From: Elusimicrobiota bacterium
Lineage (GTDB): Bacteria; CAYTYR01; UBA6262
Length of the DNA: 64,000 nucleotides
Direction of reading: 5' to 3'
Assembly: GCA_003153935.1 (NCBI GenBank)
Contig: PMCA01000034.1
Span: 561-64,560 of the forward strand
Position numbers and translations under genes: made by a program. This document shows, one piece after another, positions 49,863-64,000 of the stretch; positions within the stretch are counted from its first letter, which is position 1, and every line of letters begins with the position of its first letter. The notes beneath the pieces were generated by a model. That model worked only from the letters and a program-made list of their open reading frames with translations. It did no database searches and was not told the origin of the DNA.

Positions 49863-50732
49863 TTGAAAAATTTCTTCGGTATCCTGAGCAAAATAATATT
49901 GGTCCTGGTGGTAGCAGCCCTGGTCTGGTATAACCTGCCGCAAACGCAGGACGATCCGTTTAGTTATTTGCCGGATAAAGCCCTCGGCTACGGGCAGGTG
50001 AAAGTAAACTGGTCCGATAAAGGGCCTCAGGAACTTTTTAACGTTTTCTGGCAGAAAATGGCTGCCGCTAATCCCCAGTTGAATAACGGCCTCGCCAGGC
50101 ATTTGGCTTTGGCCTGGCTGCCCCAGGAAATCACAGCTGCGGTGCTGTACGACCGGCAATATGAATTGAGAAAACAATCCCCAGGCTTGGTGACGGTCAT
50201 CAAGCTTGATAAGAAGACCCGCCTCCTGAAACTGGTAAAACCCTGGATCAAGGTAATGTCGGGATGGGAAATTGAAAATAACCTGGTGATCATCAGCGAC
50301 CAGCCGGATAACGCGCCCAGGATCAGGCCGGAAGAATTGATTACTTTGAAGAATATGCTGTTGCCACAGCGAAATGCCGATCTGAATTTTTTCTTTCCCA
50401 ACCGGGACCATCAGCTGACCGCCCTGGTAAAATCGTTTGAAGAGAAAAATAAGTTTTCCCTTTTCCCCTCTATTAGTATGGTCGACTATCTGGAAATCGA
50501 CGGTAAATTAGCCGACGCCAACCGGTTTCAGGGTAAAATAACGTTCGTGGGTAAACATATATCGGATGTTGACAATATCGGAATGGATACTATTTTCTTA
50601 AATAGCCTGTTGCAGAGGTTCCTGTTGGGTAATGATCTGGATTACACGGGGGAAGTAAGTTCCCTGGCCAATTACGTGGAGATAAATTACCGTTTGGTCA
50701 ACCTTAATAAAATTTGGGACCGGTTCAAATGA
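49863..50732 (+). CDS. Membrane-anchored hypothetical protein, paralogue 1
   Basis: N-terminal TM helix, soluble domain; aligns by eye with 50729-51676. Confidence 0.72.
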   Translation: MKNFFGILSKIILVLVVAALVWYNLPQTQDDPFSYLPDKALGYGQVKVNWSDKGPQELFNVFWQKMAAANPQLNNGLARHLALAWLPQEITAAVLYDRQYELRKQSPGLVTVIKLDKKTRLLKLVKPWIKVMSGWEIENNLVIISDQPDNAPRIRPEELITLKNMLLPQRNADLNFFFPNRDHQLTALVKSFEEKNKFSLFPSISMVDYLEIDGKLADANRFQGKITFVGKHISDVDNIGMDTIFLNSLLQRFLLGNDLDYTGEVSSLANYVEINYRLVNLNKIWDRFK

Positions 50733-51676
50733 GAAGACTATTGATAGTGGCGATGGTCATGGTTTGCCTGGCACTGCCGGTCCGGGGCGCAGGCCTGGCG
50801 GGGTATTTACCGGCCAATATGGATGTAACTTACCAGTTGCTTCATGTTGATTCCCAACCGGCCTGGCAGGAGATATTGAATCTTTACCGTGATAAACTGG
50901 CAAATCAGAACGATCCCAATATGCTGTTGTTGAGCTATATTTTCAAACAATTTAAATTCCGGGAAATAGCGGGAGGGTATAATCGCGCGGCTCAGCAGAA
51001 TAACAATGTTTTACTGGTCCAACCGCAATTATCCGGCCCGGGAGAACAATTTAACCGGTTCCTAATAGATAACCTGGGCAGCTTCGTAGCCATTGATCAG
51101 AATTGGCACCAAACGGCTGAAGGCGAAGCCAAGATATATTTTGATATAAGAGGTGAAGCCAACGAGAAGTTAACGTCTTTTAACGTAGCCAATGACCAGG
51201 TTATCCTGGCTAGCAACAGCGCCTTGGTAAAAAAGTGCCTGGCCGCCGGGGAAAAACAGGCAAATATTGAAAGCCAAAGCTGGTACAAGGCGTTAAGGGA
51301 TAAAGCGCTGGCTAATTATGACGGCGTGGGAGGCATCAATAACCGGAACCGTAATTTTACTGCTGAGCTAAAAAAATGGGAAAAGAATAACAACCTGGTA
51401 GTGTTGATGTCGAGCGATTGGATTGACGCCCTGGGACTTAGTTTCAGGTTCCTGAGCGATGACCGCATCCAGGGGCGGCTACTTTTCCAGTGCAGCGAGC
51501 CGGGTAAAGTCGCCCTGGTCAAGAGCGACGCCGAGTTTCTGGGCGAAGTGGCGAAACGCCGTTACAGCGCCAGCCAATTAGGTATCAAAAGCAAAGTGAC
51601 CGTGAACGGGAACGTAGTAATACTCGATTTTGAAGCCGTAAACTGGCGGCCGATACTTGAAAAGGAATTAAAATAA
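50729..51676 (+). CDS. Exported hypothetical protein, paralogue 2
   Basis: Signal peptide MRRLLIVAMVMVCLALPVRG; ATGA overlap with the upstream stop. Confidence 0.75.
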   Translation: MRRLLIVAMVMVCLALPVRGAGLAGYLPANMDVTYQLLHVDSQPAWQEILNLYRDKLANQNDPNMLLLSYIFKQFKFREIAGGYNRAAQQNNNVLLVQPQLSGPGEQFNRFLIDNLGSFVAIDQNWHQTAEGEAKIYFDIRGEANEKLTSFNVANDQVILASNSALVKKCLAAGEKQANIESQSWYKALRDKALANYDGVGGINNRNRNFTAELKKWEKNNNLVVLMSSDWIDALGLSFRFLSDDRIQGRLLFQCSEPGKVALVKSDAEFLGEVAKRRYSASQLGIKSKVTVNGNVVILDFEAVNWRPILEKELK

Positions 51677-54019: not shown

Positions 54020-54793
54020 ATGAAAGTAGTAATACTGGCAGGTGGTAAGGGGACCAGGATCAGTGAAGAAACTTTAACTATTCCCAAACCAATGATTGAA
54101 ATAGGCAGCAAGCCGATTCTTTGGCACATAATGAAGATTTATTCACATTACGGGTTTAATGAATTTATCGTTTGTCTCGGCTATTTGGGTTATGTCGTTA
54201 AAGAATATTTCTCTCATTATTTTTTGCATATGAGCGATGTGACCATGGACCTGGCCAAGAATAAAATGCATATCCATAATACCGCATCGGAACCCTGGCA
54301 GGTAACACTGGTAGACACGGGGGCGGAGACCATGACCGCCGGCCGGATAAAAAGGATCGAGAAATATATAGGGACGGACCCCTTCTTAATGACTTATGGT
54401 GACGGCGTGGGGGATATTGACCTTAAGGCCCTGGTTAAATTTCATCAGAAAAGCAAGGCTCTGGCCACGGTTACCGCGGTCCAGCCTTTAGGTCGGTTTG
54501 GCACTTTAGATATCAGTACTACGGGTAAGGTTAATCATTTCCTGGAAAAACCACAGGGTGACAATAACTGGATCAATGCCGGGTTCTTTGTTTTACAGCC
54601 GGAAATTTTTAAGTACATTGAAGCTGATGACATAATATGGGAAAAAGAGCCGATGGAGAAACTGTCACGGGAAGGGCAGTTGACTGCTTACAAGCATCAT
54701 GGTTTTTGGCGGCCAATGGATGCCTTAAGGGATAAAATTGAACTGGAACGGCTCTGGCAGTCGGGTGAGGCCCCCTGGAAGATCTGGAAATAA
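54020..54793 (+). CDS. rfbF: Glucose-1-phosphate cytidylyltransferase
   Basis: LAGGKGTRISEET, PKPMIEIG, LVDTG..TMTAGR, TYGDG, WINAGFF, GFWRPMD. Confidence 0.93.
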   Translation: MKVVILAGGKGTRISEETLTIPKPMIEIGSKPILWHIMKIYSHYGFNEFIVCLGYLGYVVKEYFSHYFLHMSDVTMDLAKNKMHIHNTASEPWQVTLVDTGAETMTAGRIKRIEKYIGTDPFLMTYGDGVGDIDLKALVKFHQKSKALATVTAVQPLGRFGTLDISTTGKVNHFLEKPQGDNNWINAGFFVLQPEIFKYIEADDIIWEKEPMEKLSREGQLTAYKHHGFWRPMDALRDKIELERLWQSGEAPWKIWK

Positions 54794-54803
54794 GCAGGAG
54801 ATT

Positions 54804-55787
54804 ATGGTGAACTTTTGGCGCAACAAGAGAGTACTGATAACCGGCAATGAAGGATTCCTGGGGTCTAATCTGACTCTAAAGCTGCTGGCTGCGGGCGCGC
54901 AAATAACCGGTTTGGATATAAGAGTGCGCCGGCCTGATACTATTTTTACCAGTAAAGACTATCAGGGGTTCAAGACTATTAAAGGCAGTGTGGCCGATTT
55001 CGCCTTGGTTAGGCGTTTAATCAAGCAGAATAAGATTGAATTTGTTTTCCACCTGGCGGCCGAGGCCATTGTCGGACGATCGCTAAAAGATCCGTTAAAT
55101 ACATTTGCTTCTAATGTTGAAGGTACCTGGAATATCCTGGAAGCCTGCCGGCAATTGGGTACAGTGGAAGCGATCATTGTCGCTTCCAGTGATAAAGCCT
55201 ATGGTAGCCATAAGATATTACCCTATAAGGAAGATGCGCCATTGATTGGCGATCATCCTTATGATGTTTCCAAGAGCTGTGCCGACCTTATCGCCTATTC
55301 ATATTTTCATACCTATAATTTGCCGGTGGCCGTGACCAGGTGCGGCAATATCTACGGGCCGGGCGACTTTAATTACAGTCGTATAATACCTGATGCGTTG
55401 CGCTGCCTTTACTATGGCCGGACCCTGCTGATCCGCAGTGACGGCAGATTTACCAGGGATTATGTTTATGTTGATGACATCGTCAACGGGTATATGCTTT
55501 TGGCGGAAAAATTGAAGAAACTGAAACTGGCAGGCGAAGCTTTCAATATCAGCGATGAAAATCCTATTTCCGTGCTCGCCTTGCTGGCGCAGATCAACAT
55601 GCTTTCCGGTAGAAAACTGAACTATAAAATACTGGACCGGGCTAAATACGAAATTAAAGATCAATATCTGGCAGCCAACAAAGCCAGAAGGATCTTAGGC
55701 TGGAAGCCGCAATTTAATCTGGATGAGGCTCTAAAAATAACTATGGCCTGGTATGAAAATTATTTTGGGACTGTTTTATGCCAATGA
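54804..55787 (+). CDS. CDP-glucose 4,6-dehydratase-like SDR
   Basis: FWRNKRVLITG, HLAAEAIVG, SSDKAYG, PYDVSK, RCGNIYGPGD; follows rfbF. Confidence 0.75.
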   Translation: MVNFWRNKRVLITGNEGFLGSNLTLKLLAAGAQITGLDIRVRRPDTIFTSKDYQGFKTIKGSVADFALVRRLIKQNKIEFVFHLAAEAIVGRSLKDPLNTFASNVEGTWNILEACRQLGTVEAIIVASSDKAYGSHKILPYKEDAPLIGDHPYDVSKSCADLIAYSYFHTYNLPVAVTRCGNIYGPGDFNYSRIIPDALRCLYYGRTLLIRSDGRFTRDYVYVDDIVNGYMLLAEKLKKLKLAGEAFNISDENPISVLALLAQINMLSGRKLNYKILDRAKYEIKDQYLAANKARRILGWKPQFNLDEALKITMAWYENYFGTVLCQ

Positions 55788-56914
55788 GGAAATGCAGAGT
55801 ATGCGGCCATGAATTTTTTAAAGAGCCATTGCTGCGATATGAGAATATGCCCAAGGCCGCTCAGTTTTTACCGGACGCGAAATCGGTGGAAAACGAAAAG
55901 GGAGAAAATCTAGAAATATACCAGTGTTCGGGTTGCGGATTGATTCAGCTAAGTAATGATCCTGTCCCATATTATAAGGAGGTCATACGTGCGGCGGCCT
56001 TTTCCGCAGAAATGAAAGATTTCCGCAACAAGCAATTCCAGAGTTTCGCACAGAAATATTCCCTTAAAGGAGAAAAAGTTATCGAGATCGGCTGCGGCCG
56101 CGGGGAATATCTGTCCATAATGCAACAATTGGGCGTAGAAGCTTATGGGCTAGAATATGCGGAAGAAGCGGTGATGCAGTGCGTCAAGAATGGTCTAAAA
56201 GTTTCCCAAGGATTTATCCAAAGCGGTTCTGAAAGTTTAAAACACGCTCCCTTTAAGGGTTTTTTTATATTGAATTTTCTTGAGCACCTGCCTGACCCGA
56301 ATTCAACTCTTAGGGGAATATATAACAACTTGATGAATGATGCTATAGGACTTGTTGAAGTGCCAAATTTTGACATGATTTTGCGGAAAAACCTTTTCTC
56401 CGAATTCATTGGCGACCATCTGTTTTATTTTACCAGGGAAACCTTAAATACAACTTTAAAACTTAATGGTTTTGAGATCCTGGAATGTGATGAAGTGTGG
56501 CACGATTATATAATTTCCGCGGTGGTTAGGAAAAGAGCCAAGATCGGCCTGGAACGTTTTTATAAAGATCAGGCGAAACTTAAAAATGAAATCGAAGAAT
56601 ATATTAACCGCTTCCAGGACAAAAAAGTAGCCATCTGGGGCGCAGGGCATCAAGCCCTGGCCGTGATTTCTTTAACAAATTTAACCGGTAAGGTTAAGTA
56701 CGTTGTGGATTCCGCCGTATTTAAGCAGGGTAAATTTACTCCGGCTACGCATATCCCCATCGTTTCTCCCGATACGCTGGGCACTGATCCGGTCGGGGCG
56801 ATTATAGTTATGGCGGCCAGCTATTCTGATGAAGTGGTGAAAATCATACAAGGGAAATTCGGGAAGAAGATAGCTATTGCCGTACTGAGAGATTTTGGCT
56901 TAGAAGAAGTTTAA
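55778..56914 (+). CDS. NDP-hexose C-methyltransferase-like (Zn site, SAM domain, C-terminal domain)
   Basis: CRVC and CSGC Cys pairs, IEIGCGRG, LEHLPDP, VEVPN, WGAGHQ, VVDSAVFKQGKFTP. Confidence 0.82.
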   Translation: MPMRKCRVCGHEFFKEPLLRYENMPKAAQFLPDAKSVENEKGENLEIYQCSGCGLIQLSNDPVPYYKEVIRAAAFSAEMKDFRNKQFQSFAQKYSLKGEKVIEIGCGRGEYLSIMQQLGVEAYGLEYAEEAVMQCVKNGLKVSQGFIQSGSESLKHAPFKGFFILNFLEHLPDPNSTLRGIYNNLMNDAIGLVEVPNFDMILRKNLFSEFIGDHLFYFTRETLNTTLKLNGFEILECDEVWHDYIISAVVRKRAKIGLERFYKDQAKLKNEIEEYINRFQDKKVAIWGAGHQALAVISLTNLTGKVKYVVDSAVFKQGKFTPATHIPIVSPDTLGTDPVGAIIVMAASYSDEVVKIIQGKFGKKIAIAVLRDFGLEEV

Positions 56915-56968
56915 CTGGTGGGACGCACAGTTAATAAATATTCCCTGGGAAGATGAGGAGAAAATAGC

Positions 56969-58039
56969 ATGGCGAAGGAACAAGAAAAGTTAAAAGCTGA
57001 TGAACAGGAAAAAAGAAACCGGTTGAAAAATGAAAAACCTTATGTGTATAAGAAAATCATGCAATTCGATGAAAAAGTTAAAAAGGGTGAAAGTATAGCG
57101 ATACTGCAGTTTCAATACAATTACAAATGCAATTTCCGTTGCCAGCACTGTGACATTACCGGCCTGCGGGATAAAACGGGGGAAAAAAGAAGCTTTACGC
57201 CAAAAGACGTAAAGGAACTTTCGCGCCAGGCGGATGAAATGGGTCTGGCCCATATCGTGATCACTGGTGGTGAACCGCTGGTTTTCGCGGAATTTGACGA
57301 AATTGTTAAGGCCATAGACCCGCAAAAATTTTATATAACCTCTGATACGAATGGCTGGTTTTTAGATACGAAACGAGCAAAGCATCTCAAGGCCATCGGT
57401 ATTGACAAAATCCAACTTAGCTTGGACAGCCTTAACGCAGCTGAACATGATGACTTTCGGCGCAGTCCTGGGTCTCACGAACGATGTTTAAAAGCCATTG
57501 ATGCGGCTTTGGCCGCCGGTTTGAATATTATTATCCAAACCGTGGTTACCAAGCAAAGGGTACGTTCTCAGGAATTTATAGAATTTTTAGAATTTTTGAA
57601 CGGAAAAGGTGTGGGCGTTTTTGTGACCTACGCGAAACCGGTCGGAGAATGGACAGGCAATTATGACGTTATGATCAATCGCGATGATATGGATTATCTG
57701 CGGGGGCTGGAGAAGAAATATAATGTATTTACCCATCTGACCCCGTCTTACGGCCTCAATTTGGGCTGTATTGCCGTAAAAAGAATGGTTTCTATCACTC
57801 AGTACGGGGATGTGCTTCCATGCCCGTATATCCATATTTCACTGGGTAATTTCTTTAAAGAGCCGCTAAAGGATATTATCGCCAGAGGCATGAAAATCAG
57901 ATATTTTGGCGAATATCATGATACCTGTTTTATAGCCGAGGATAGAAAATTCATAGAGGAAATAGAGGCTAAGAAGATATACGGCAAACCGCTTCCGGTT
58001 CCTTATACGGAAGTGTTTACGGAAGATGATTATATTTAG
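56969..58039 (+). CDS. Radical SAM protein with twitch/SPASM-like C-terminus
   Basis: CNFRCQHC, TGGEP, TNG, GCIAVKR..GDVLPCPY. Confidence 0.88.
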   Translation: MAKEQEKLKADEQEKRNRLKNEKPYVYKKIMQFDEKVKKGESIAILQFQYNYKCNFRCQHCDITGLRDKTGEKRSFTPKDVKELSRQADEMGLAHIVITGGEPLVFAEFDEIVKAIDPQKFYITSDTNGWFLDTKRAKHLKAIGIDKIQLSLDSLNAAEHDDFRRSPGSHERCLKAIDAALAAGLNIIIQTVVTKQRVRSQEFIEFLEFLNGKGVGVFVTYAKPVGEWTGNYDVMINRDDMDYLRGLEKKYNVFTHLTPSYGLNLGCIAVKRMVSITQYGDVLPCPYIHISLGNFFKEPLKDIIARGMKIRYFGEYHDTCFIAEDRKFIEEIEAKKIYGKPLPVPYTEVFTEDDYI

Positions 58040-58049
58040 AGGGGGGAAA

Positions 58050-59555
58050 ATGAAGAGTCACGATAAATGGCCATTGTTCGTTTTCGAGATGGCCAATAAT
58101 CATATGGGTGATGTAGTGCACGGGATGAAGATCATCAGGGAAATCAGCCGGGTGTGCCAGGGATTTGATTTTAAATTTGCCTTTAAATTCCAATATCGGG
58201 ATCTTGACACGTTCATTCATCCGGATTTCAAAAATAATCTTGAATATAAATATGTTAAAAGGTTTTCTGAGACAAAACTTAGCCAAGATCAGTTTAGAAC
58301 GCTAAAGGATGAAGCGGTTAAAGAAGGTTTTGTTACTATGTGCACTCCGTTTGATGAGAATTCCGTTGATTTAATTGAAAAATTTGATTTCGACATTATT
58401 AAGATAGCCAGTTGTTCCTTCACGGACTGGCCGCTGCTGGAAAGAATAGCAAGAACTAATAAGCCGGTTATTGCTTCGACGGCAGGCGCCTCCTTGGACG
58501 ATATAGATAAAGTTGTTAGTTTTTTTACTCATCGGGACAAAGAATTTGCCTTAATGCATTGTGTCGCGGAATATCCTACTCTAAAAAATAATCTTCAATT
58601 AAATCAAATTGATTTGATGAGAGCGCGTTATCCTCAGGTCGTAGTCGGCTATTCCACTCACGAATCTCCGGATATGTATGAGGCTATCAAAGTGGCCATA
58701 GGGAAAGGGGCCAAGATATTTGAAAAACATGTTGGCGTCCAAACCGAAAAGTATAAATTGAATGATTATTCCGCTACTCCGGAGCAAGTTAAAAAATGGC
58801 TGGAGGCGGCCAGGGAAGGTTTGGAGATATGCGGGGTTTCAGGCAGCCGCATGGATTTTACGGAAAAAGAGTTATCCAGCCTGAGATCTTTAGGCAGAGG
58901 GGTTTTCGCCGCGCAAAATATCAAAAAAGGTGAAAGAATAAACAGGCCCGAGGTATTTCTGGCCATACCTACGCAGGAAAATCAAATTATTGCCAATGAT
59001 TTCTCAAAGTATGCGGAGTTTTACGCTACGGATAATATAAAGAAGAATGAGCCGATTCTTTTTAAAAATACTACTAGGATAGATAATAGAGAAAAGATTT
59101 ATGCCATGGTTCAAAGCGTGAAAGAAGTTATTATGAAAAGCGGGATATTGGTCCCAAGCAGGCTGGATCTGGAAATTTCACACCATTATGGCATTGATAG
59201 GTTTTATGAATACGGATGTACTTTAATAAATTTTGTTAACAGGGAATACTGCAAAAAACTTATAGTGGTATTGCCAGGGCAGAAGCATCCGGAACAATAT
59301 CATAAGGTGAAAGAGGAAACTTTTCATGTTCTATACGGCGAGGTAATAATAATTCTTGACGGGAAAGAGCGGGTGTGCAAGCCGGGGGAAATAGTAACCG
59401 TGGAGCGCGGTATAAAACATATATTTACCAGCAAAACCGGTGCCATAATAGAAGAAATATCTTCCACGCATTTCCAGGACGATTCATTCTATACCGCGCC
59501 GGAAATTGCCAAAAATAAAAACAGAAAAACTCTCATTACTTACTGGTTAGGCTGA
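58050..59555 (+). CDS. NeuB-family synthase fused to SAF and a C-terminal cupin (sugar isomerase-like)
   Basis: FEMANNHMGD, KIASC, MHCVAEYPT, GYSTHE, EKHV; SAF-like RGVFAAQNIKKGE; cupin HPEQYHKVKEETFHVLYG. Confidence 0.82.
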   Translation: MKSHDKWPLFVFEMANNHMGDVVHGMKIIREISRVCQGFDFKFAFKFQYRDLDTFIHPDFKNNLEYKYVKRFSETKLSQDQFRTLKDEAVKEGFVTMCTPFDENSVDLIEKFDFDIIKIASCSFTDWPLLERIARTNKPVIASTAGASLDDIDKVVSFFTHRDKEFALMHCVAEYPTLKNNLQLNQIDLMRARYPQVVVGYSTHESPDMYEAIKVAIGKGAKIFEKHVGVQTEKYKLNDYSATPEQVKKWLEAAREGLEICGVSGSRMDFTEKELSSLRSLGRGVFAAQNIKKGERINRPEVFLAIPTQENQIIANDFSKYAEFYATDNIKKNEPILFKNTTRIDNREKIYAMVQSVKEVIMKSGILVPSRLDLEISHHYGIDRFYEYGCTLINFVNREYCKKLIVVLPGQKHPEQYHKVKEETFHVLYGEVIIILDGKERVCKPGEIVTVERGIKHIFTSKTGAIIEEISSTHFQDDSFYTAPEIAKNKNRKTLITYWLG

Positions 59556-60145
59556 TGCTGACGATTGTCTGGGATGTTGATGATGTGCTTAATGACCTTA
59601 TGCATGCCTGGTTTAAGCATAGCTGGTTAGCTGATCATCCAGATGGTAAAATCAGATACGAAGATTTGACGGGAAACCCGCCGCATCATTTATTAGGAAT
59701 GACCAGACAACAGTATTTACGCTCACTCGATGCTTTCCGTAATTCCGCCAGGGGTCAAGCTATGCTCCCGAACGCGGCGCTTTTAAAATGGTTTCATGTT
59801 TACGGACATTTGGCCAGGCATGTAGCTTTGACCAGCAGGCCGCTTAATACCGTGCCGCTTCTGTCGCAATGGGTTTTCCGGCATTTCGGGGTTTGGATCA
59901 GGACCTTCGCATTTGTGCCGGCGCGCGCTGATAAAGCTATTCCCTTTTATGACCGCGATAAACGCGGGTATCTGAAATGGCTGGCTAAAACCGATGTATT
60001 GGTGGATGATAGTACGGAGAATATTAAAGACGCCAGGGATTTGGGAATAAAAGGCTTATTATATCCCAGGACCTGGAATCGAAGCGACTTGACGGTTGAT
60101 CAGCTTTTAAGGATCTTGACGCAAGAGGTTAAAGCCAAAAAGTAA
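59555..60145 (+). CDS. HAD-superfamily phosphatase (5'(3')-nucleotidase-like)
   Basis: WDVDDVL (DxD), LTSRP, VLVDD. Confidence 0.72.
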   Translation: MLTIVWDVDDVLNDLMHAWFKHSWLADHPDGKIRYEDLTGNPPHHLLGMTRQQYLRSLDAFRNSARGQAMLPNAALLKWFHVYGHLARHVALTSRPLNTVPLLSQWVFRHFGVWIRTFAFVPARADKAIPFYDRDKRGYLKWLAKTDVLVDDSTENIKDARDLGIKGLLYPRTWNRSDLTVDQLLRILTQEVKAKK

Positions 60146-60153
60146 AGGAAACC

Positions 60154-61953
60154 ATGATTAAATTATCCGACTATGTAATCAAATTTGTGGCAGAACAAAA
60201 AGTTAAACACATTTTCATGTTTCCCGGCGGCGGCGCCATGCATTTAGTTGATTCCGCCGGTAAATGTCCGGGTTTGGAATTTGTCTGTAACCTGCATGAA
60301 CAGGCTTGCGCTATTTGTGCCGAGGCTTACAGCCAGTGTTCCGGCAATTTGGGGGTCGCTTTGGTGACCACCGGCCCTGGCGGCACTAATGCTGTTACCG
60401 GTGTAGCCGGAGCCTGGATCGATTCAACGCCAATGATGATTTTCTCCGGGCAGGTTAAAAGGGCCGACCTGGCTGCCGGCCGCGGGGTACGCCAGATGGG
60501 TCCGCAGGAGATAGACATCATTTCTATAGTTAAGCCAATTACTAAGTACGCCGTTACGGTAGATGATCCTGAAGATATCCGTTATCACTTGGAAAAGGCG
60601 TTGTCTCTGGCTAAAAGCGGGCGGCCGGGTCCGGTATGGCTGGATATCCCGTTAGACGTGCAATCAGCAATGGTCGATGAAAGAAGATTGAAAAGTTTTT
60701 CGCCTAAAGAGAAACCCAGGCTCACTAAGGCATTACGCGGTAAAATTACCAAAGCGATAGGACTTATTAATCAGGCTCAGCGGCCGGTGATAATTGCCGG
60801 TAACGGCGTGCGTTTAGCCGGCGCGTTAGCTGATTTTCGTGCACTTGCTGATTTTTTGGATATACCGGTGCTAACTACCTGGAAGGCTATTGATTTTCTT
60901 CCCCAGGATCACCGTTTATATGCCGGCCGGCCAGGCATAATAGGACAACGCGGGGCTAATTTTGTACAACAGAACAGCGATTGCCTGATTATGCTGGGTG
61001 CGCGCATGGATCTTTTACAATTAGCTTTTGACCATAAACATTTCGCTCGCGCAGCCAAAAAAATAATGGTGGAAATCGATCCCAATGAGATCAAAAAAAT
61101 GACTGCTAAAATAGATTTGCCCATTTGCGCTGACGCGGGTTTAGCCATCAGGGAGTTTTTAAGAGCCGGAAAGAAGATAAAATCGCCGGATCGTTCACCC
61201 TGGATAAACCGCTGCCAGGAATGGAACAAAGAATATCCCGTTATATTGCCGCAATATTGGGAAGAGGAGGATATAGTTAATGTTTATGTCCTGATCGATG
61301 TCCTATCCGACGCCTTAACCAAAAAAGACGTGGTAGTCCCGGGCAGCTCAGGCCAGTGCAGCGAAATATTTATGCAGTCATTCAGGGTCAAAGAGGGCCA
61401 ACGTATTTTAAACACTCCGGGTTTAGGCGCCATGGGGTTTGGTTTGCCGGCCAGTATAGGCGCCTGTTTAGCTGCTGGCCAGCGCCGGACCATATGTATC
61501 AACGGCGACGGCGGTTTCCAATTGAACATCCAGGAACTGGAAACCGTGCGCAGGTTAAATCTGCCCATAAAATATTTTATTTTAAATAATCACGGATACG
61601 CTTCGATCAAAGCTACCCAGAAAAATAGTTTTTCCGGGCATTATGTAGCCTGCGATGTTGCCAGCGGTTTAAGCCTGCCTGATATCGCCAAGTTAGCCAA
61701 GGCTTACGATATTAAGACCGCTAGCCTGGAAAATCATACTAATATCAGGGAAAAGATAAGGGAAATATTAGAAACCCCCGGTCCGGTTATCTGCAATGTT
61801 AATGTTTCTATAAGCCAGACGGTGGCGCCAAAAGTCATTTCCAAATTGAACCCCGACGGCTCCGTAGTATCGAAGCCCATGGAAGACATGTGGCCGTTTC
61901 TTGACCGTGAAGAGTTTAAGAAAAACATGATCATAAAGCCCTTAAAAGAATAA
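60154..61953 (+). CDS. ThDP-dependent acetolactate-synthase-like enzyme (YerE-like)
   Basis: PGGGAMHL, HEQA, TTGPGGTN, SGQV, GDGG...NN ThDP motif; embedded in a sugar cluster with no regulatory subunit. Confidence 0.85.
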   Translation: MIKLSDYVIKFVAEQKVKHIFMFPGGGAMHLVDSAGKCPGLEFVCNLHEQACAICAEAYSQCSGNLGVALVTTGPGGTNAVTGVAGAWIDSTPMMIFSGQVKRADLAAGRGVRQMGPQEIDIISIVKPITKYAVTVDDPEDIRYHLEKALSLAKSGRPGPVWLDIPLDVQSAMVDERRLKSFSPKEKPRLTKALRGKITKAIGLINQAQRPVIIAGNGVRLAGALADFRALADFLDIPVLTTWKAIDFLPQDHRLYAGRPGIIGQRGANFVQQNSDCLIMLGARMDLLQLAFDHKHFARAAKKIMVEIDPNEIKKMTAKIDLPICADAGLAIREFLRAGKKIKSPDRSPWINRCQEWNKEYPVILPQYWEEEDIVNVYVLIDVLSDALTKKDVVVPGSSGQCSEIFMQSFRVKEGQRILNTPGLGAMGFGLPASIGACLAAGQRRTICINGDGGFQLNIQELETVRRLNLPIKYFILNNHGYASIKATQKNSFSGHYVACDVASGLSLPDIAKLAKAYDIKTASLENHTNIREKIREILETPGPVICNVNVSISQTVAPKVISKLNPDGSVVSKPMEDMWPFLDREEFKKNMIIKPLKE

Positions 61954-62005
61954 GAAAACCGTTTATCCGTGCGCGGCAGTAATTCATATGATAAAGAGGT
62001 AATTT

Positions 62006-62884
62006 GTGCGAGTATTTTTAACCGGAGGGTCGGGATTTACCGGCCGTAATTTGCTTGAGCAGATGCGGGGCCGCTATGAAATACTGGCTCCCGGGCATAA
62101 AGAACTGGAATTGCTTGATGAGGATGCAGTCAAAAGTTTTATTAAAGGGAATAAAATTGATGTAGTAGTACATGCGGCTATTAAGCCGTTGCATCGCAAT
62201 GCCAAAGACACGGTTGATTTAGTTAACAATAATATCCGGATATTTTTTAATATAGCCCGCAATAACGCATATTTTAAAAAGATGGTCTATATAAGCTCGG
62301 GTGCTATTTACGATAAACGTTATTATCAACCTAAAATGAAAGAGGATTATTTTGATGCGCACGTGCCGGCTGATGATACGGGGTTGTATAAATATGCCGT
62401 GGCAAAATATATCGAGAAAGCTGATAATATAACAGAATTGCGGCCGTTCGGCATTTTCGGTAAAAACGAAGATTACGCTATCAGGTTTATTTCCAATATG
62501 ATCTGCAAGGCTATTTTTGATCTGCCTTTGACCATGCACCAGAACCGCAGGTTTGATTACCTGTATGTCAATGATCTGTCCCAGGTGGTCGAATATTTCA
62601 TTGAACATAACGGCCGGTATAAAGCCTATAACGTTACGCCGGATGATTCCATAGAACTGTATCAATTGGCGCAGCTGGTATTGAGAGTTGCCGGAAAAGA
62701 CTTGCCGATAGCGGTAGTCAGGGAAGATATGGGACCGGAATACACTGGGGATAACACCCGGTTGCGTAAGGAGATGCCGGGTGTCCTGTTTACTCCGTTC
62801 GAAACCGCGGTAAAGGAATTGTATGATTGGTATCTTGCCAACCGGCAAATGATCGATAAAAATGTGTTGCTGGTGGATAAGTAA
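62006..62884 (+). CDS. NAD-dependent epimerase/reductase (SDR)
   Basis: TGGSGFTG, SSGAIY, YKYAVAK, RPFGIFG, DYLYVND. Confidence 0.85.
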   Translation: MRVFLTGGSGFTGRNLLEQMRGRYEILAPGHKELELLDEDAVKSFIKGNKIDVVVHAAIKPLHRNAKDTVDLVNNNIRIFFNIARNNAYFKKMVYISSGAIYDKRYYQPKMKEDYFDAHVPADDTGLYKYAVAKYIEKADNITELRPFGIFGKNEDYAIRFISNMICKAIFDLPLTMHQNRRFDYLYVNDLSQVVEYFIEHNGRYKAYNVTPDDSIELYQLAQLVLRVAGKDLPIAVVREDMGPEYTGDNTRLRKEMPGVLFTPFETAVKELYDWYLANRQMIDKNVLLVDK

Positions 62885-62914
62885 GGGGAAATCTATGAAA
62901 CAAGAAAAGATCCA

Positions 62915-63385
62915 ATGAACCGTTTTAAGGAGAAATTAGCGCAGGTAAGCGGTAACCATGGGATGAAAATGCGTTTTGCCATGGTGGGCGCCTGGAATAC
63001 GGTTTTTGGTTACGGCGTGTTTTGGTTTTTGGATAATTTTTTCGCTGCTAATTTGAAATCACGAGTTGCGGCCTATATGTGGGCAACTGCGCTTAGCCAG
63101 GTTACAGCAGTTATTAATGCGTTCATTTTTCATAAATATGTAACCTTTAAATCACAGGTTAGAGGTTCGGGAATTGTACTAGAATTCTTTCGTTTCTGTT
63201 TGACATACGTAGTTACTTTTTTTCTGGGTCTGTTATTAATGCCCTTTTTTGTGGAAGTGTTTTCTTTCGATCCGAAAGTATCCGCCGCCTTAATTATTGC
63301 CATTTGCACGGCAGTTAGCTATTTTGGGCATTTTAAGTTTTCCTTTAATCAACCAGGTAAAAACAAAGGGACAGGCGATCAGTAG
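62915..63385 (+). CDS. GtrA family membrane protein
   Basis: RFAMVGAWNTVFGY, FIFHKYVTF, four TM segments. Confidence 0.85.
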   Translation: MNRFKEKLAQVSGNHGMKMRFAMVGAWNTVFGYGVFWFLDNFFAANLKSRVAAYMWATALSQVTAVINAFIFHKYVTFKSQVRGSGIVLEFFRFCLTYVVTFFLGLLLMPFFVEVFSFDPKVSAALIIAICTAVSYFGHFKFSFNQPGKNKGTGDQ

Positions 63386-63404
63386 ATAAGCAAAGGGGAA
63401 GTCT

Positions 63405-64000
63405 ATGAGTCAGGAAAAGATCCTGCGTAATGAGATCCGGAAATTGGTGAAAAAATATTACGCGGTTAAACCTAAAGAAAGGTTTATTCCCGGCCAGACG
63501 TACGTTAATTATGCCGGCCGCGTATATGATGAAAAAGAATTAGTTTCGCTGGTGGATTCGTCTTTAGATTTCTGGCTTACCGCTGATAAATATGCCAGGG
63601 AGTTCGAACGAAAACTGGCTGCTTTCCTGGGAGTTAAATATACGCTGCTGACTAATTCCGGTTCCTCGGCTAATTTATTGGCTATTTCCGCCCTAACTTC
63701 ACCCTTGCTTAAAGAAAGACAATTGAAACCGGGTGATGAAGTGATAACCACGGCCTGCGGTTTTCCTACTACCTTGAATCCGATCCTGCAAAATAACCTG
63801 GTCCCGGTTTTCATCGATGTCGAGCTGGGAACATATAATATCAGGACTGACCTGCTGGAAAAAGCCCTTAGTGGGAAAACTAAGGCTGTTTTCGTGCCAC
63901 ATACTTTGGGAAATCCTGCAGCTATAGAGGTTATTTCCAGTTTTTGCCGCAAACATAACCTGTGGTTCGTGGAAGACAATTCCGACGCTCTCGGGTCAAA
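63405..64000 (+). CDS. rfbH: CDP-4-keto-6-deoxyglucose 3-dehydrase RfbH/DdhC (3' end outside the window; not in the ORF track)
   Basis: Manual translation FIPGQTYVNYAGRVYD..SSLDFWLT..TNSGSSANLLA..GDEVITTACGFPTT..HTLGNP..EDNSDALGS. Confidence 0.9.
   Translation, partial: MSQEKILRNEIRKLVKKYYAVKPKERFIPGQTYVNYAGRVYDEKELVSLVDSSLDFWLTADKYAREFERKLAAFLGVKYTLLTNSGSSANLLAISALTSPLLKERQLKPGDEVITTACGFPTTLNPILQNNLVPVFIDVELGTYNIRTDLLEKALSGKTKAVFVPHTLGNPAAIEVISSFCRKHNLWFVEDNSDALGS

Follow-up and report, generated by a model that had tools for sequence, protein, structure and literature searches.

What does a thiamine diphosphate (ThDP)-dependent enzyme do when its gene lies within an operon for a CDP-linked dideoxysugar? 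The question was raised by an operon at positions 54020–64000 of a 64,000-nucleotide stretch of DNA (the window) from an Elusimicrobiota bacterium (GenBank assembly GCA_003153935.1, contig PMCA01000034.1, positions 561–64,560 of the forward strand; G000:C14:561-64560 in our numbering). The host genome is a 95% complete assembly, and the adjoining downstream 20 kb was analyzed as L002. An earlier note on this DNA had proposed that the ThDP enzyme acts on a CDP-dideoxysugar as YerE does in the synthesis of yersiniose. On balance, we favor the reading that the operon makes a CDP-activated 3,6-dideoxyhexose with a long hydroxylated branch at C4, which is then passed to a polyprenyl-phosphate carrier. 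The product is probably not yersiniose, the branch being a long hydroxylated chain as in erwiniose and caryophyllose and not a C2 unit derived from pyruvate.

The genes form one plus-strand operon of 11 genes that abut or overlap, with 54020–64000 as its 5′ nine-tenths. All genes named in the earlier note were found there, on the plus strand and closely packed, and a GtrA gene was added to its list. Short-chain dehydrogenase/reductases are abbreviated SDR, radical S-adenosylmethionine enzymes radical SAM, family 2 glycosyltransferases GT2 and AlphaFold2 AF2.

54020–54793, plus strand: rfbF/ddhA, glucose-1-phosphate cytidylyltransferase, which makes CDP-glucose (TIGR02623 equivalog; Pfam NTP_transferase).
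54804–55787, plus strand: rfbG-like extended SDR, presumed CDP-glucose 4,6-dehydratase (TIGR02622 below cut-off; position; motifs).
55778–56914, plus strand: TylC3-type NDP-sugar C-methyltransferase (Pfam Methyltransf_23/14; PDB neighbors).
56969–58039, plus strand: radical SAM enzyme with one twitch/SPASM-like auxiliary-cluster domain (Pfam Radical_SAM and SPASM).
58026–59555, plus strand: NeuB-cupin fusion, 509 amino acids (Pfam NeuB and Cupin_2).
59555–60145, plus strand: HAD-superfamily phosphatase, 196 amino acids (four HAD motifs; AF2 fold).
60154–61953, plus strand: proposed JanthE/YerE-like ThDP-dependent carboligase, 599 amino acids (three ThDP domains; PDB scores).
62006–62884, plus strand: extended SDR (RmlD/Fcl-like), 292 amino acids, candidate YerF-type reductase (Pfam Epimerase and RmlD_sub_bind).
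62915–63385, plus strand: GtrA-family small membrane protein, putative flippase partner (Pfam GtrA_DPMS_TM, 65 bits).
63405–64000 and on to 64715 (L002:66-1376), plus strand: rfbH/ddhC (E1), CDP-4-keto-6-deoxyglucose 3-dehydrase, 436 amino acids (NF011936).
L002:1373-2305, just beyond the end of the window, after rfbH: GtrB/ArnC/PgfS-like GT2 (PgfS 225 bits, ArnC 131 bits, both below cut-off).

The ThDP enzyme contains all three expected Pfam domains (TPP_enzyme_N, M and C), with GDG at residue 451 and NN at 478–479 (GDG-X24-NN) and the catalytic Glu49 in an HEQ motif, invariant across the family. Searches of the PDB gave 403 bits for JanthE (8rph; residues 2–593), 273 bits for PpYerE (5ahk) and at most 258 bits for acetohydroxyacid synthases (AHAS); the margin over AHAS was slight for PpYerE and clear for JanthE, whose match takes in a C-terminal extension that is missing from AHAS. 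The best NCBIfam matches were AHAS models, every one below its cut-off (TIGR00118, 412 bits, cut-off 538); the genuine AHAS of the same genome, on contig C12, scored 866 bits. A FastTree phylogeny of 87 sequences, rooted on the genome's own AHAS, split the ThDP family from that AHAS and from a paralogue on contig C25 with 99%–100% local support, while the relation to JanthE and YerE was judged from PDB bit scores and curated cut-offs. The enzyme is an extra paralogue beside the true AHAS, below all AHAS cut-offs and, among solved structures, closest to JanthE, in keeping with the earlier note, which had likened its role to that of YerE and had named a grouping with anabolic acetolactate synthases as a result that would speak against this. 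JanthE itself, a lyase of the YerE-like kind, carries out aldehyde–ketone carboligation in vitro, with 2-keto acids as donors for ketone acceptors (PMC12188165, PMC12247030).

The C25 paralogue (G000:C25:22875-24635, L088:10876-12636) is the third ThDP enzyme of this kind in the genome. It scored 451 bits on the AHAS model, below cut-off. Its gene has no sugar genes around it, being flanked by one for a BamB-like beta-propeller protein and one for a GAF/HAMP histidine kinase.

The genes that accompany the ThDP gene elsewhere were counted by tblastn with the operon proteins and by all-against-all clustering of open reading frames (ORFs). At least 598 loci were found among species-representative genomes, and the counts given here refer to the best-scoring 80 of these, which are not a random sample. 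They come from Chloroflexota, Acidobacteriota, Verrucomicrobiota, Bacteroidota, Bacillota, Omnitrophota, Elusimicrobia, candidate phyla radiation (CPR) bacteria, DPANN archaea and others, with 60%–65% identity within the ThDP family across phyla. Of the 80 genome loci, 66 have a NeuB-like gene, which almost without exception precedes the ThDP gene and is separated from it by a HAD gene; an independent metagenome set gave a NeuB-like gene for 63 of 80 loci. Strict ORF-based adjacency was found in 49 of 68 loci, an undercount because the ORF caller hides some genes behind antisense ORFs, and the tblastn counts were preferred. At least one of rfbF, rfbG and rfbH was found in approximately 45–50 of the 80 genome loci, so that the ThDP family is linked to these genes across phyla and the pairing of a ThDP enzyme with CDP-dideoxysugar synthesis, first suggested in the earlier note, is borne out. 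That note had also counted the NeuB-cupin and HAD genes among those that the yersiniose pathway does not need. No other genes show a tighter linkage to the ThDP gene than these two, and they are the probable makers of its donor.

The NeuB-cupin protein consists of a NeuB part (residues ~16–347) and a cupin part (~365–490). Pfam NeuB matched with 152 bits, and the equivalog cut-offs for NeuB and PseI were failed (TIGR03569, 142 versus 400; TIGR03586, 132 versus 340), which places the protein, as judged from these scores, in the NeuB superfamily but outside the known nonulosonate synthases. The NeuB domain matched 3g8r, an uncharacterized "SpsE" structure from Chromobacterium violaceum, with E = 7e-118. 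The cupin domain is predicted to be a sugar isomerase of the D-lyxose isomerase type: it aligned with the D-lyxose isomerases 2y0o (E = 2.7e-10) and 7nzo, and its AF2 model (predicted local distance difference test score [pLDDT] 92.5) gave top fold matches that were all D-lyxose isomerases (TM-scores 0.67–0.70), followed by phosphomannose isomerases. Of the four metal ligands (His, His, Glu, His), three do not vary among 23 fusions; the first His, which is Gln here, alternates between His and Gln throughout the family. The possibility that the cupin is an NDP-sugar 3,4-ketoisomerase or 3,5-epimerase of the FdtA/RmlC type was rejected, as both sequence and fold searches returned D-lyxose and phosphomannose isomerases and the AF2 model matched no enzyme of the RmlC or FdtA type.

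The HAD protein had no Pfam match. It has motif I as WDVDDV (D7, D9), followed by T93, K136 and D151-D152, all invariant or nearly so in 15 homologues, and its AF2 model (pLDDT 95.4) gave 5′(3′)-deoxyribonucleotidase-like HAD phosphatases as top fold matches with probability 1.0.

The related loci are of two types. Type A, which includes the present operon, has a NeuB-cupin of ~505 amino acids and a HAD protein of 200 amino acids encoded between the NeuB-cupin and ThDP genes. Type B, mostly from Acidobacteriota, has a NeuB of ~295 amino acids and a KdsC-like HAD, often with SIS_2 proteins, FkbM methyltransferases and reductases of the Gfo/Idh/MocA or classical SDR families; a separate SIS_2 isomerase is encoded in 14 type B loci. 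In the ThDP tree the present gene belongs to type A, which is a grade, while type B forms a derived clade. At L070:7802-8863 and at its counterpart in L077 (both Bacillota), a single gene, with a short NeuB gene on one side and the ThDP gene on the other, encodes a 353-amino-acid fusion of a KdsC-like HAD with a SIS_2 isomerase, which ties isomerase and phosphatase to one pathway. With the NeuB-cupin fusion, there are two different fusions that link isomerase, phosphoenolpyruvate (PEP)-dependent synthase and phosphatase as one module, and this module probably supplies the donor keto acid.

For the acceptor, RfbF scored 417 bits against TIGR02623 (cut-off 300), and full-length RfbH scored 712 bits against NF011936 (cut-off 423) and 538 bits against the Yersinia E1 structure (PDB 3bcx) and keeps the catalytic His. 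The RfbG-like SDR has the GxxGxxG and YxxxK motifs and holds the RfbG slot between rfbF and rfbH in at least 13 related loci (45%–48% identity); its ORF as listed starts at a TTG at 54738, and the ATG at 54804 is the likely start.

The steps of the favored reading can be set out as follows. RfbF would make CDP-glucose, the RfbG-like SDR would convert it to CDP-4-keto-6-deoxyglucose, and RfbH would strip the 3-hydroxyl to give CDP-4-keto-3,6-dideoxyglucose. In parallel, the cupin domain would turn a ketose, which is probably phosphorylated, into its manno-type aldose isomer. The NeuB domain would condense this aldose with PEP to a 3-deoxy-2-ulosonate phosphate, and the HAD enzyme would remove the phosphate to leave a free 3-deoxy-2-ulosonic acid. 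The ThDP enzyme would then decarboxylate the free 2-keto acid and add the resulting acyl anion equivalent to the C4 ketone of CDP-4-keto-3,6-dideoxyglucose, after which the SDR encoded at 62006–62884 would reduce the ketone so formed in the side chain, a role known from YerF and ErwF. This SDR contains GxxGxxG and YxxxK motifs, and a homologue lies directly 3′ of the ThDP gene in several related loci. The C-methyltransferase and the twitch radical SAM enzyme may tailor the sugar or the side chain; one option is that an alcohol oxidation by the radical SAM enzyme provides the enolizable ketone that the C-methyltransferase needs. The GT2 and GtrA proteins would place the sugar on a lipid carrier and move it across the membrane, and it would then be joined to the glycan of the surrounding Wzz/Wzx and legionaminic-acid-type locus.

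The best of the other readings keeps the product close to yersiniose. The ThDP enzyme would add a C2 acetyl unit from pyruvate, the SDR would reduce it, and the NeuB-cupin and HAD proteins would contribute to the same glycan separately, through a ulosonic acid that has nothing to do with the branch. JanthE does take pyruvate in vitro (PMC12188165), and two CTP_transf_3 genes are located downstream, where a single legionaminic-type pathway obviously needs one. The order NeuB-HAD-ThDP, which recurs in 66 of 80 genome and 63 of 80 metagenome loci, speaks against independent pathways. So does its packing in the present operon, where the HAD gene starts within the stop of NeuB-cupin and is itself followed by the ThDP gene at a distance of 9 nucleotides. 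A conserved donor module of NeuB and HAD also argues against a C2 branch from pyruvate. A homologue of CMP-transferases was found in only one of the 80 related loci, so the ulosonate is probably not CMP-activated, and an HpcH aldolase was found in none. We consider a yersiniose-type product unlikely.

A second alternative separates the ThDP enzyme from the CDP-sugar arm: it would only decarboxylate the NeuB-made ulosonic acid to a 2-deoxy-aldose, or ligate it to an acceptor that is not a sugar. ThDP-dependent decarboxylases of 2-keto acids are common, and approximately 30 of the 80 loci have no rfbF, rfbG or rfbH within 10 kb. However, a bona fide rfbH was present elsewhere in all five tested genomes whose ThDP locus lacks it, versus none of 14 control genomes, and the nearest characterized relatives of the enzyme are carboligases that accept ketones (PMC12247030). 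We regard its independence from the CDP-sugar as quite improbable.

Several points weigh against the favored reading of a long-branched CDP-sugar. Its donor and acceptor, the sequence of its reactions and the parts played by the C-methyltransferase and the radical SAM enzyme are inferred from family assignments and synteny, and the synteny was counted in the best-scoring loci. On the donor side, the nearest relatives of the cupin use unphosphorylated sugars, a poor fit with the need for a phosphatase. Moreover, 3-deoxy-ulosonic acids of eight or more carbons are mostly cyclic in solution and may be poor ThDP donors, either of the two downstream CTP_transf_3 genes could activate the NeuB-cupin product, and a C2 branch may be formed instead, given the use of pyruvate by JanthE. 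On the acceptor side, the RfbG-like SDR scored 227 bits against TIGR02622, below the cut-off of 278. The acceptor arm may also be impaired in this genome, where one iron-sulfur ligand of RfbH is replaced and an E3 reductase is not encoded.

The E1 [2Fe-2S] cysteines, C193, C251, C253 and C261 (numbering of Agnihotri et al., 2004), are Cys at residues 251, 253 and 261 of the present RfbH and Ser at residue 193 (codon TCC at 63981–63983, versus TGC). The Ser is unique among 53 homologues checked, with Cys193 kept in all 52 others including the closest relative, L168, and is either an assembly error or a private and possibly disabling change. The absence of DdhD/E3 from the window, pointed out in the earlier note with the advice to look for ddhD downstream, was found to extend further. 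No Fer2-FNR reductase of this type (Fer2, FAD_binding_6 and NAD_binding_1) is encoded in the 95%-complete genome, whose only NAD_binding_1 proteins are two PyrK-like ones, and no Fer2-FNR ORF was found in the 80 related genome loci by motif regular expression as opposed to profile search.

These observations raise the possibility that the pathway is crippled in this genome, the C193S change and the missing E3 leaving no 3,6-dideoxy acceptor, which would be compatible with the long-branch reading for the family as a whole. Against it, the replacement is a single-base difference in a metagenome-type assembly and may be an error, and the other genes are all intact and closely packed. As no E3 was found in the related loci either, a general reductase is probably normal for the cassette, with electrons probably coming from general ferredoxin or flavodoxin systems; SpnQ runs on general reductases instead of E3 (PMC8987622). 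A crippled pathway is therefore given a low probability. Replacement of E3 by the radical SAM enzyme was considered and rejected, since the radical SAM gene is present in only 11 of the 80 loci and the motif search found E3 in none of them.

Finally, it is highly improbable that an acetolactate synthase, whether anabolic or catabolic, has by chance come to lie in a glycan locus as the ThDP enzyme: its best NCBIfam matches are AHAS models and its homologues are annotated at source as "acetolactate synthase large subunit", but it falls below every AHAS cut-off, has no adjacent small-subunit gene, is separated by a long branch from the AHAS that the genome also has, and keeps conserved synteny with sugar genes.

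The two tailoring genes form a sub-module of their own. The C-methyltransferase passed the cut-offs of Methyltransf_23 (54.9) and Methyltransf_14 (51.3), fell below that of Methyltransf_13 (27.3, cut-off 31.3), has the N-terminal CxxC...CxxC zinc ribbon and has TylC3 (4rv9, best), TcaB9 and KijD1 as its nearest PDB neighbors. The radical SAM enzyme has its CX3CX2C motif at residues 54–61 and other cysteines only at 173, 267, 285 and 320; these few further cysteines point to one auxiliary cluster of the twitch type. Its best PDB matches, BlsE and MoaA, were weak, the protein Atlas labels it just "radical SAM/SPASM protein", and its homologues in related cassettes are 61%–82% identical. Both genes together are kept at 58%–82% identity in eight related loci (L015, L017, L022, L024, L093, L095, L105 and L168), and the two are also paired in L020. 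A family of small ORFs (c15) that accompanies them elsewhere has no homologue in this genome. GtrA and GT2 genes co-occur in 12 related loci.

Upstream of the operon are dTDP-rhamnose genes and Ugd, and the G+C content of the operon block is lower than that of the upstream genes. Downstream are Wzz, a MarR-type regulator, a legionaminic-acid-type gene set, a Wzx-like flippase and more sugar genes. Approximately 17 kb downstream of the ThDP gene, at L002:17836-19439 (G000:C14:81735-83338), a gene for an HpcH/HpaI-family aldolase is followed directly by a CTP_transf_3 cytidylyltransferase gene. This pair could make and CMP-activate a 3-deoxy-ulosonic acid; alternatively, the aldolase could be a second source of keto-acid donor. 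At L002:12416-13590, a DegT-family aminotransferase is split into ORFs of 123 and 258 amino acids in different frames, by a frameshift or an assembly error. Within the window, at 49863–51676, the glycan locus contains two adjacent ORFs (289 and 320 amino acids) without a Pfam or NCBIfam match.

A metagenome relative, L168, has the identical gene order at 75%–85% identity. Among six genomes of the same family (G001–G006), a ThDP homologue was present in three, at 43%–49% identity versus 63% to copies from Chloroflexota, and this lower identity within the family than across phyla points to horizontal transfer of the cassette. The low G+C block and the patchy, distant copies in the same family are what would be expected of a glycan cassette that spreads horizontally. 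Plasmids searched by tblastn at E = 1e-80 gave no match.

How bacteria make long-branched sugars, which include caryophyllose and erwiniose and are rare as surface determinants, has been explained only recently. The present cassette, found in at least 598 species-representative genomes from many bacterial phyla including CPR bacteria and from DPANN archaea, suggests a second and far more widespread route to such side chains that uses sialic-acid-type chemistry. It predicts that common uncultured bacteria of soil, peat and sediment display giant branched sugars that are as yet undescribed, and it offers a testable physiological substrate for JanthE-type enzymes, which are being engineered as biocatalysts without a known natural function. 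A broader proposal, which we put forward tentatively and think has less than an even chance, is that the donors of the entire JanthE-type ThDP subfamily are NeuB-made 3-deoxy-2-ulosonic acids of 8–10 carbons. The products would then be branched monosaccharides of 13–15 carbons, larger than caryophyllose. In the present operon a second, oxygen-free C-methyl branch would come from the C-methyltransferase and the twitch radical SAM enzyme, giving a doubly branched sugar of a type not known from any glycan.

How does the operon compare with known systems? It shares with yersiniose A synthesis in Yersinia pseudotuberculosis (DdhA-D, YerE, YerF) the genes for RfbF, an RfbG-like protein and RfbH and the use of a ThDP enzyme followed by a reductase; it differs in having no DdhD/E3 and in a ThDP enzyme that is distant from a YerE (PpYerE, 273 bits). 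The closest solved relative of that enzyme is JanthE of Janthinobacterium sp. HH01 (PDB 8rph, 8rpi and 8rpj), in which the ThDP motif is an unusual CDG, whereas the present enzyme has the canonical GDG. The polyprenyl-phosphate-type GT2 paired with GtrA resembles the GtrA/GtrB, ArnC and PgfS systems, with the differences that the donor here would be a CDP-linked branched sugar and that a GT-C transferase to carry out the final transfer was not found.

Kdo is supplied by KdsD, KdsA and KdsC, and KDN in Bacteroides by KDN-9-phosphate synthase and KDN-9-phosphate phosphatase. The proposed donor module resembles these supply routes in using a sugar or sugar-phosphate isomerase, a PEP condensation and a HAD phosphatase in the same order, and the type B relatives use a KdsC-like HAD with SIS proteins. 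It differs from them in that no CMP-transferase is linked, the free keto acid would go to the ThDP enzyme, and the isomerase is a cupin of the D-lyxose isomerase type fused to NeuB.

The closest parallels are the routes to erwiniose in Pectobacterium atrosepticum (ErwE/F/I/J), caryophyllose in Mycobacterium marinum (MMAR_2331/2332) and gastriose (MyGE/MygI/MygF) (PMC9306805). The donors of ErwE, MMAR_2332 and MyGE are hydroxylated 2-keto acids made by aldolases (4-hydroxy-2-oxo acids), the proposed acceptor is CDP-4-keto-3,6-dideoxyglucose, and reduction follows (Steitz et al., 2022; PMC9306805). Common to these systems and the present operon are acceptor genes of the ddhABC type (the ddhB counterpart being presumed here), a separate maker of a hydroxylated 2-keto acid (proposed here), a ThDP enzyme to join the two, which here is probably YerE-like, and a finishing reductase. 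The published systems obtain their donor from a class II pyruvate aldolase (BphI/HpcH type), whereas here it would come from a cupin isomerase, a NeuB-type synthase and a HAD phosphatase, a module that makes a longer and more hydroxylated 3-deoxy-2-ulosonate likely; the present operon also adds a C-methyltransferase and a radical SAM enzyme, and its ThDP enzyme belongs to the JanthE subfamily. Full-text literature searches returned no paper that links YerE- or JanthE-type enzymes to NeuB, although Lanza et al. (2024), on JanthE, and Krug et al. may mention such a link. Taken together, the operon probably follows the acyl-branched-sugar route known from the literature and feeds it from a new donor module.

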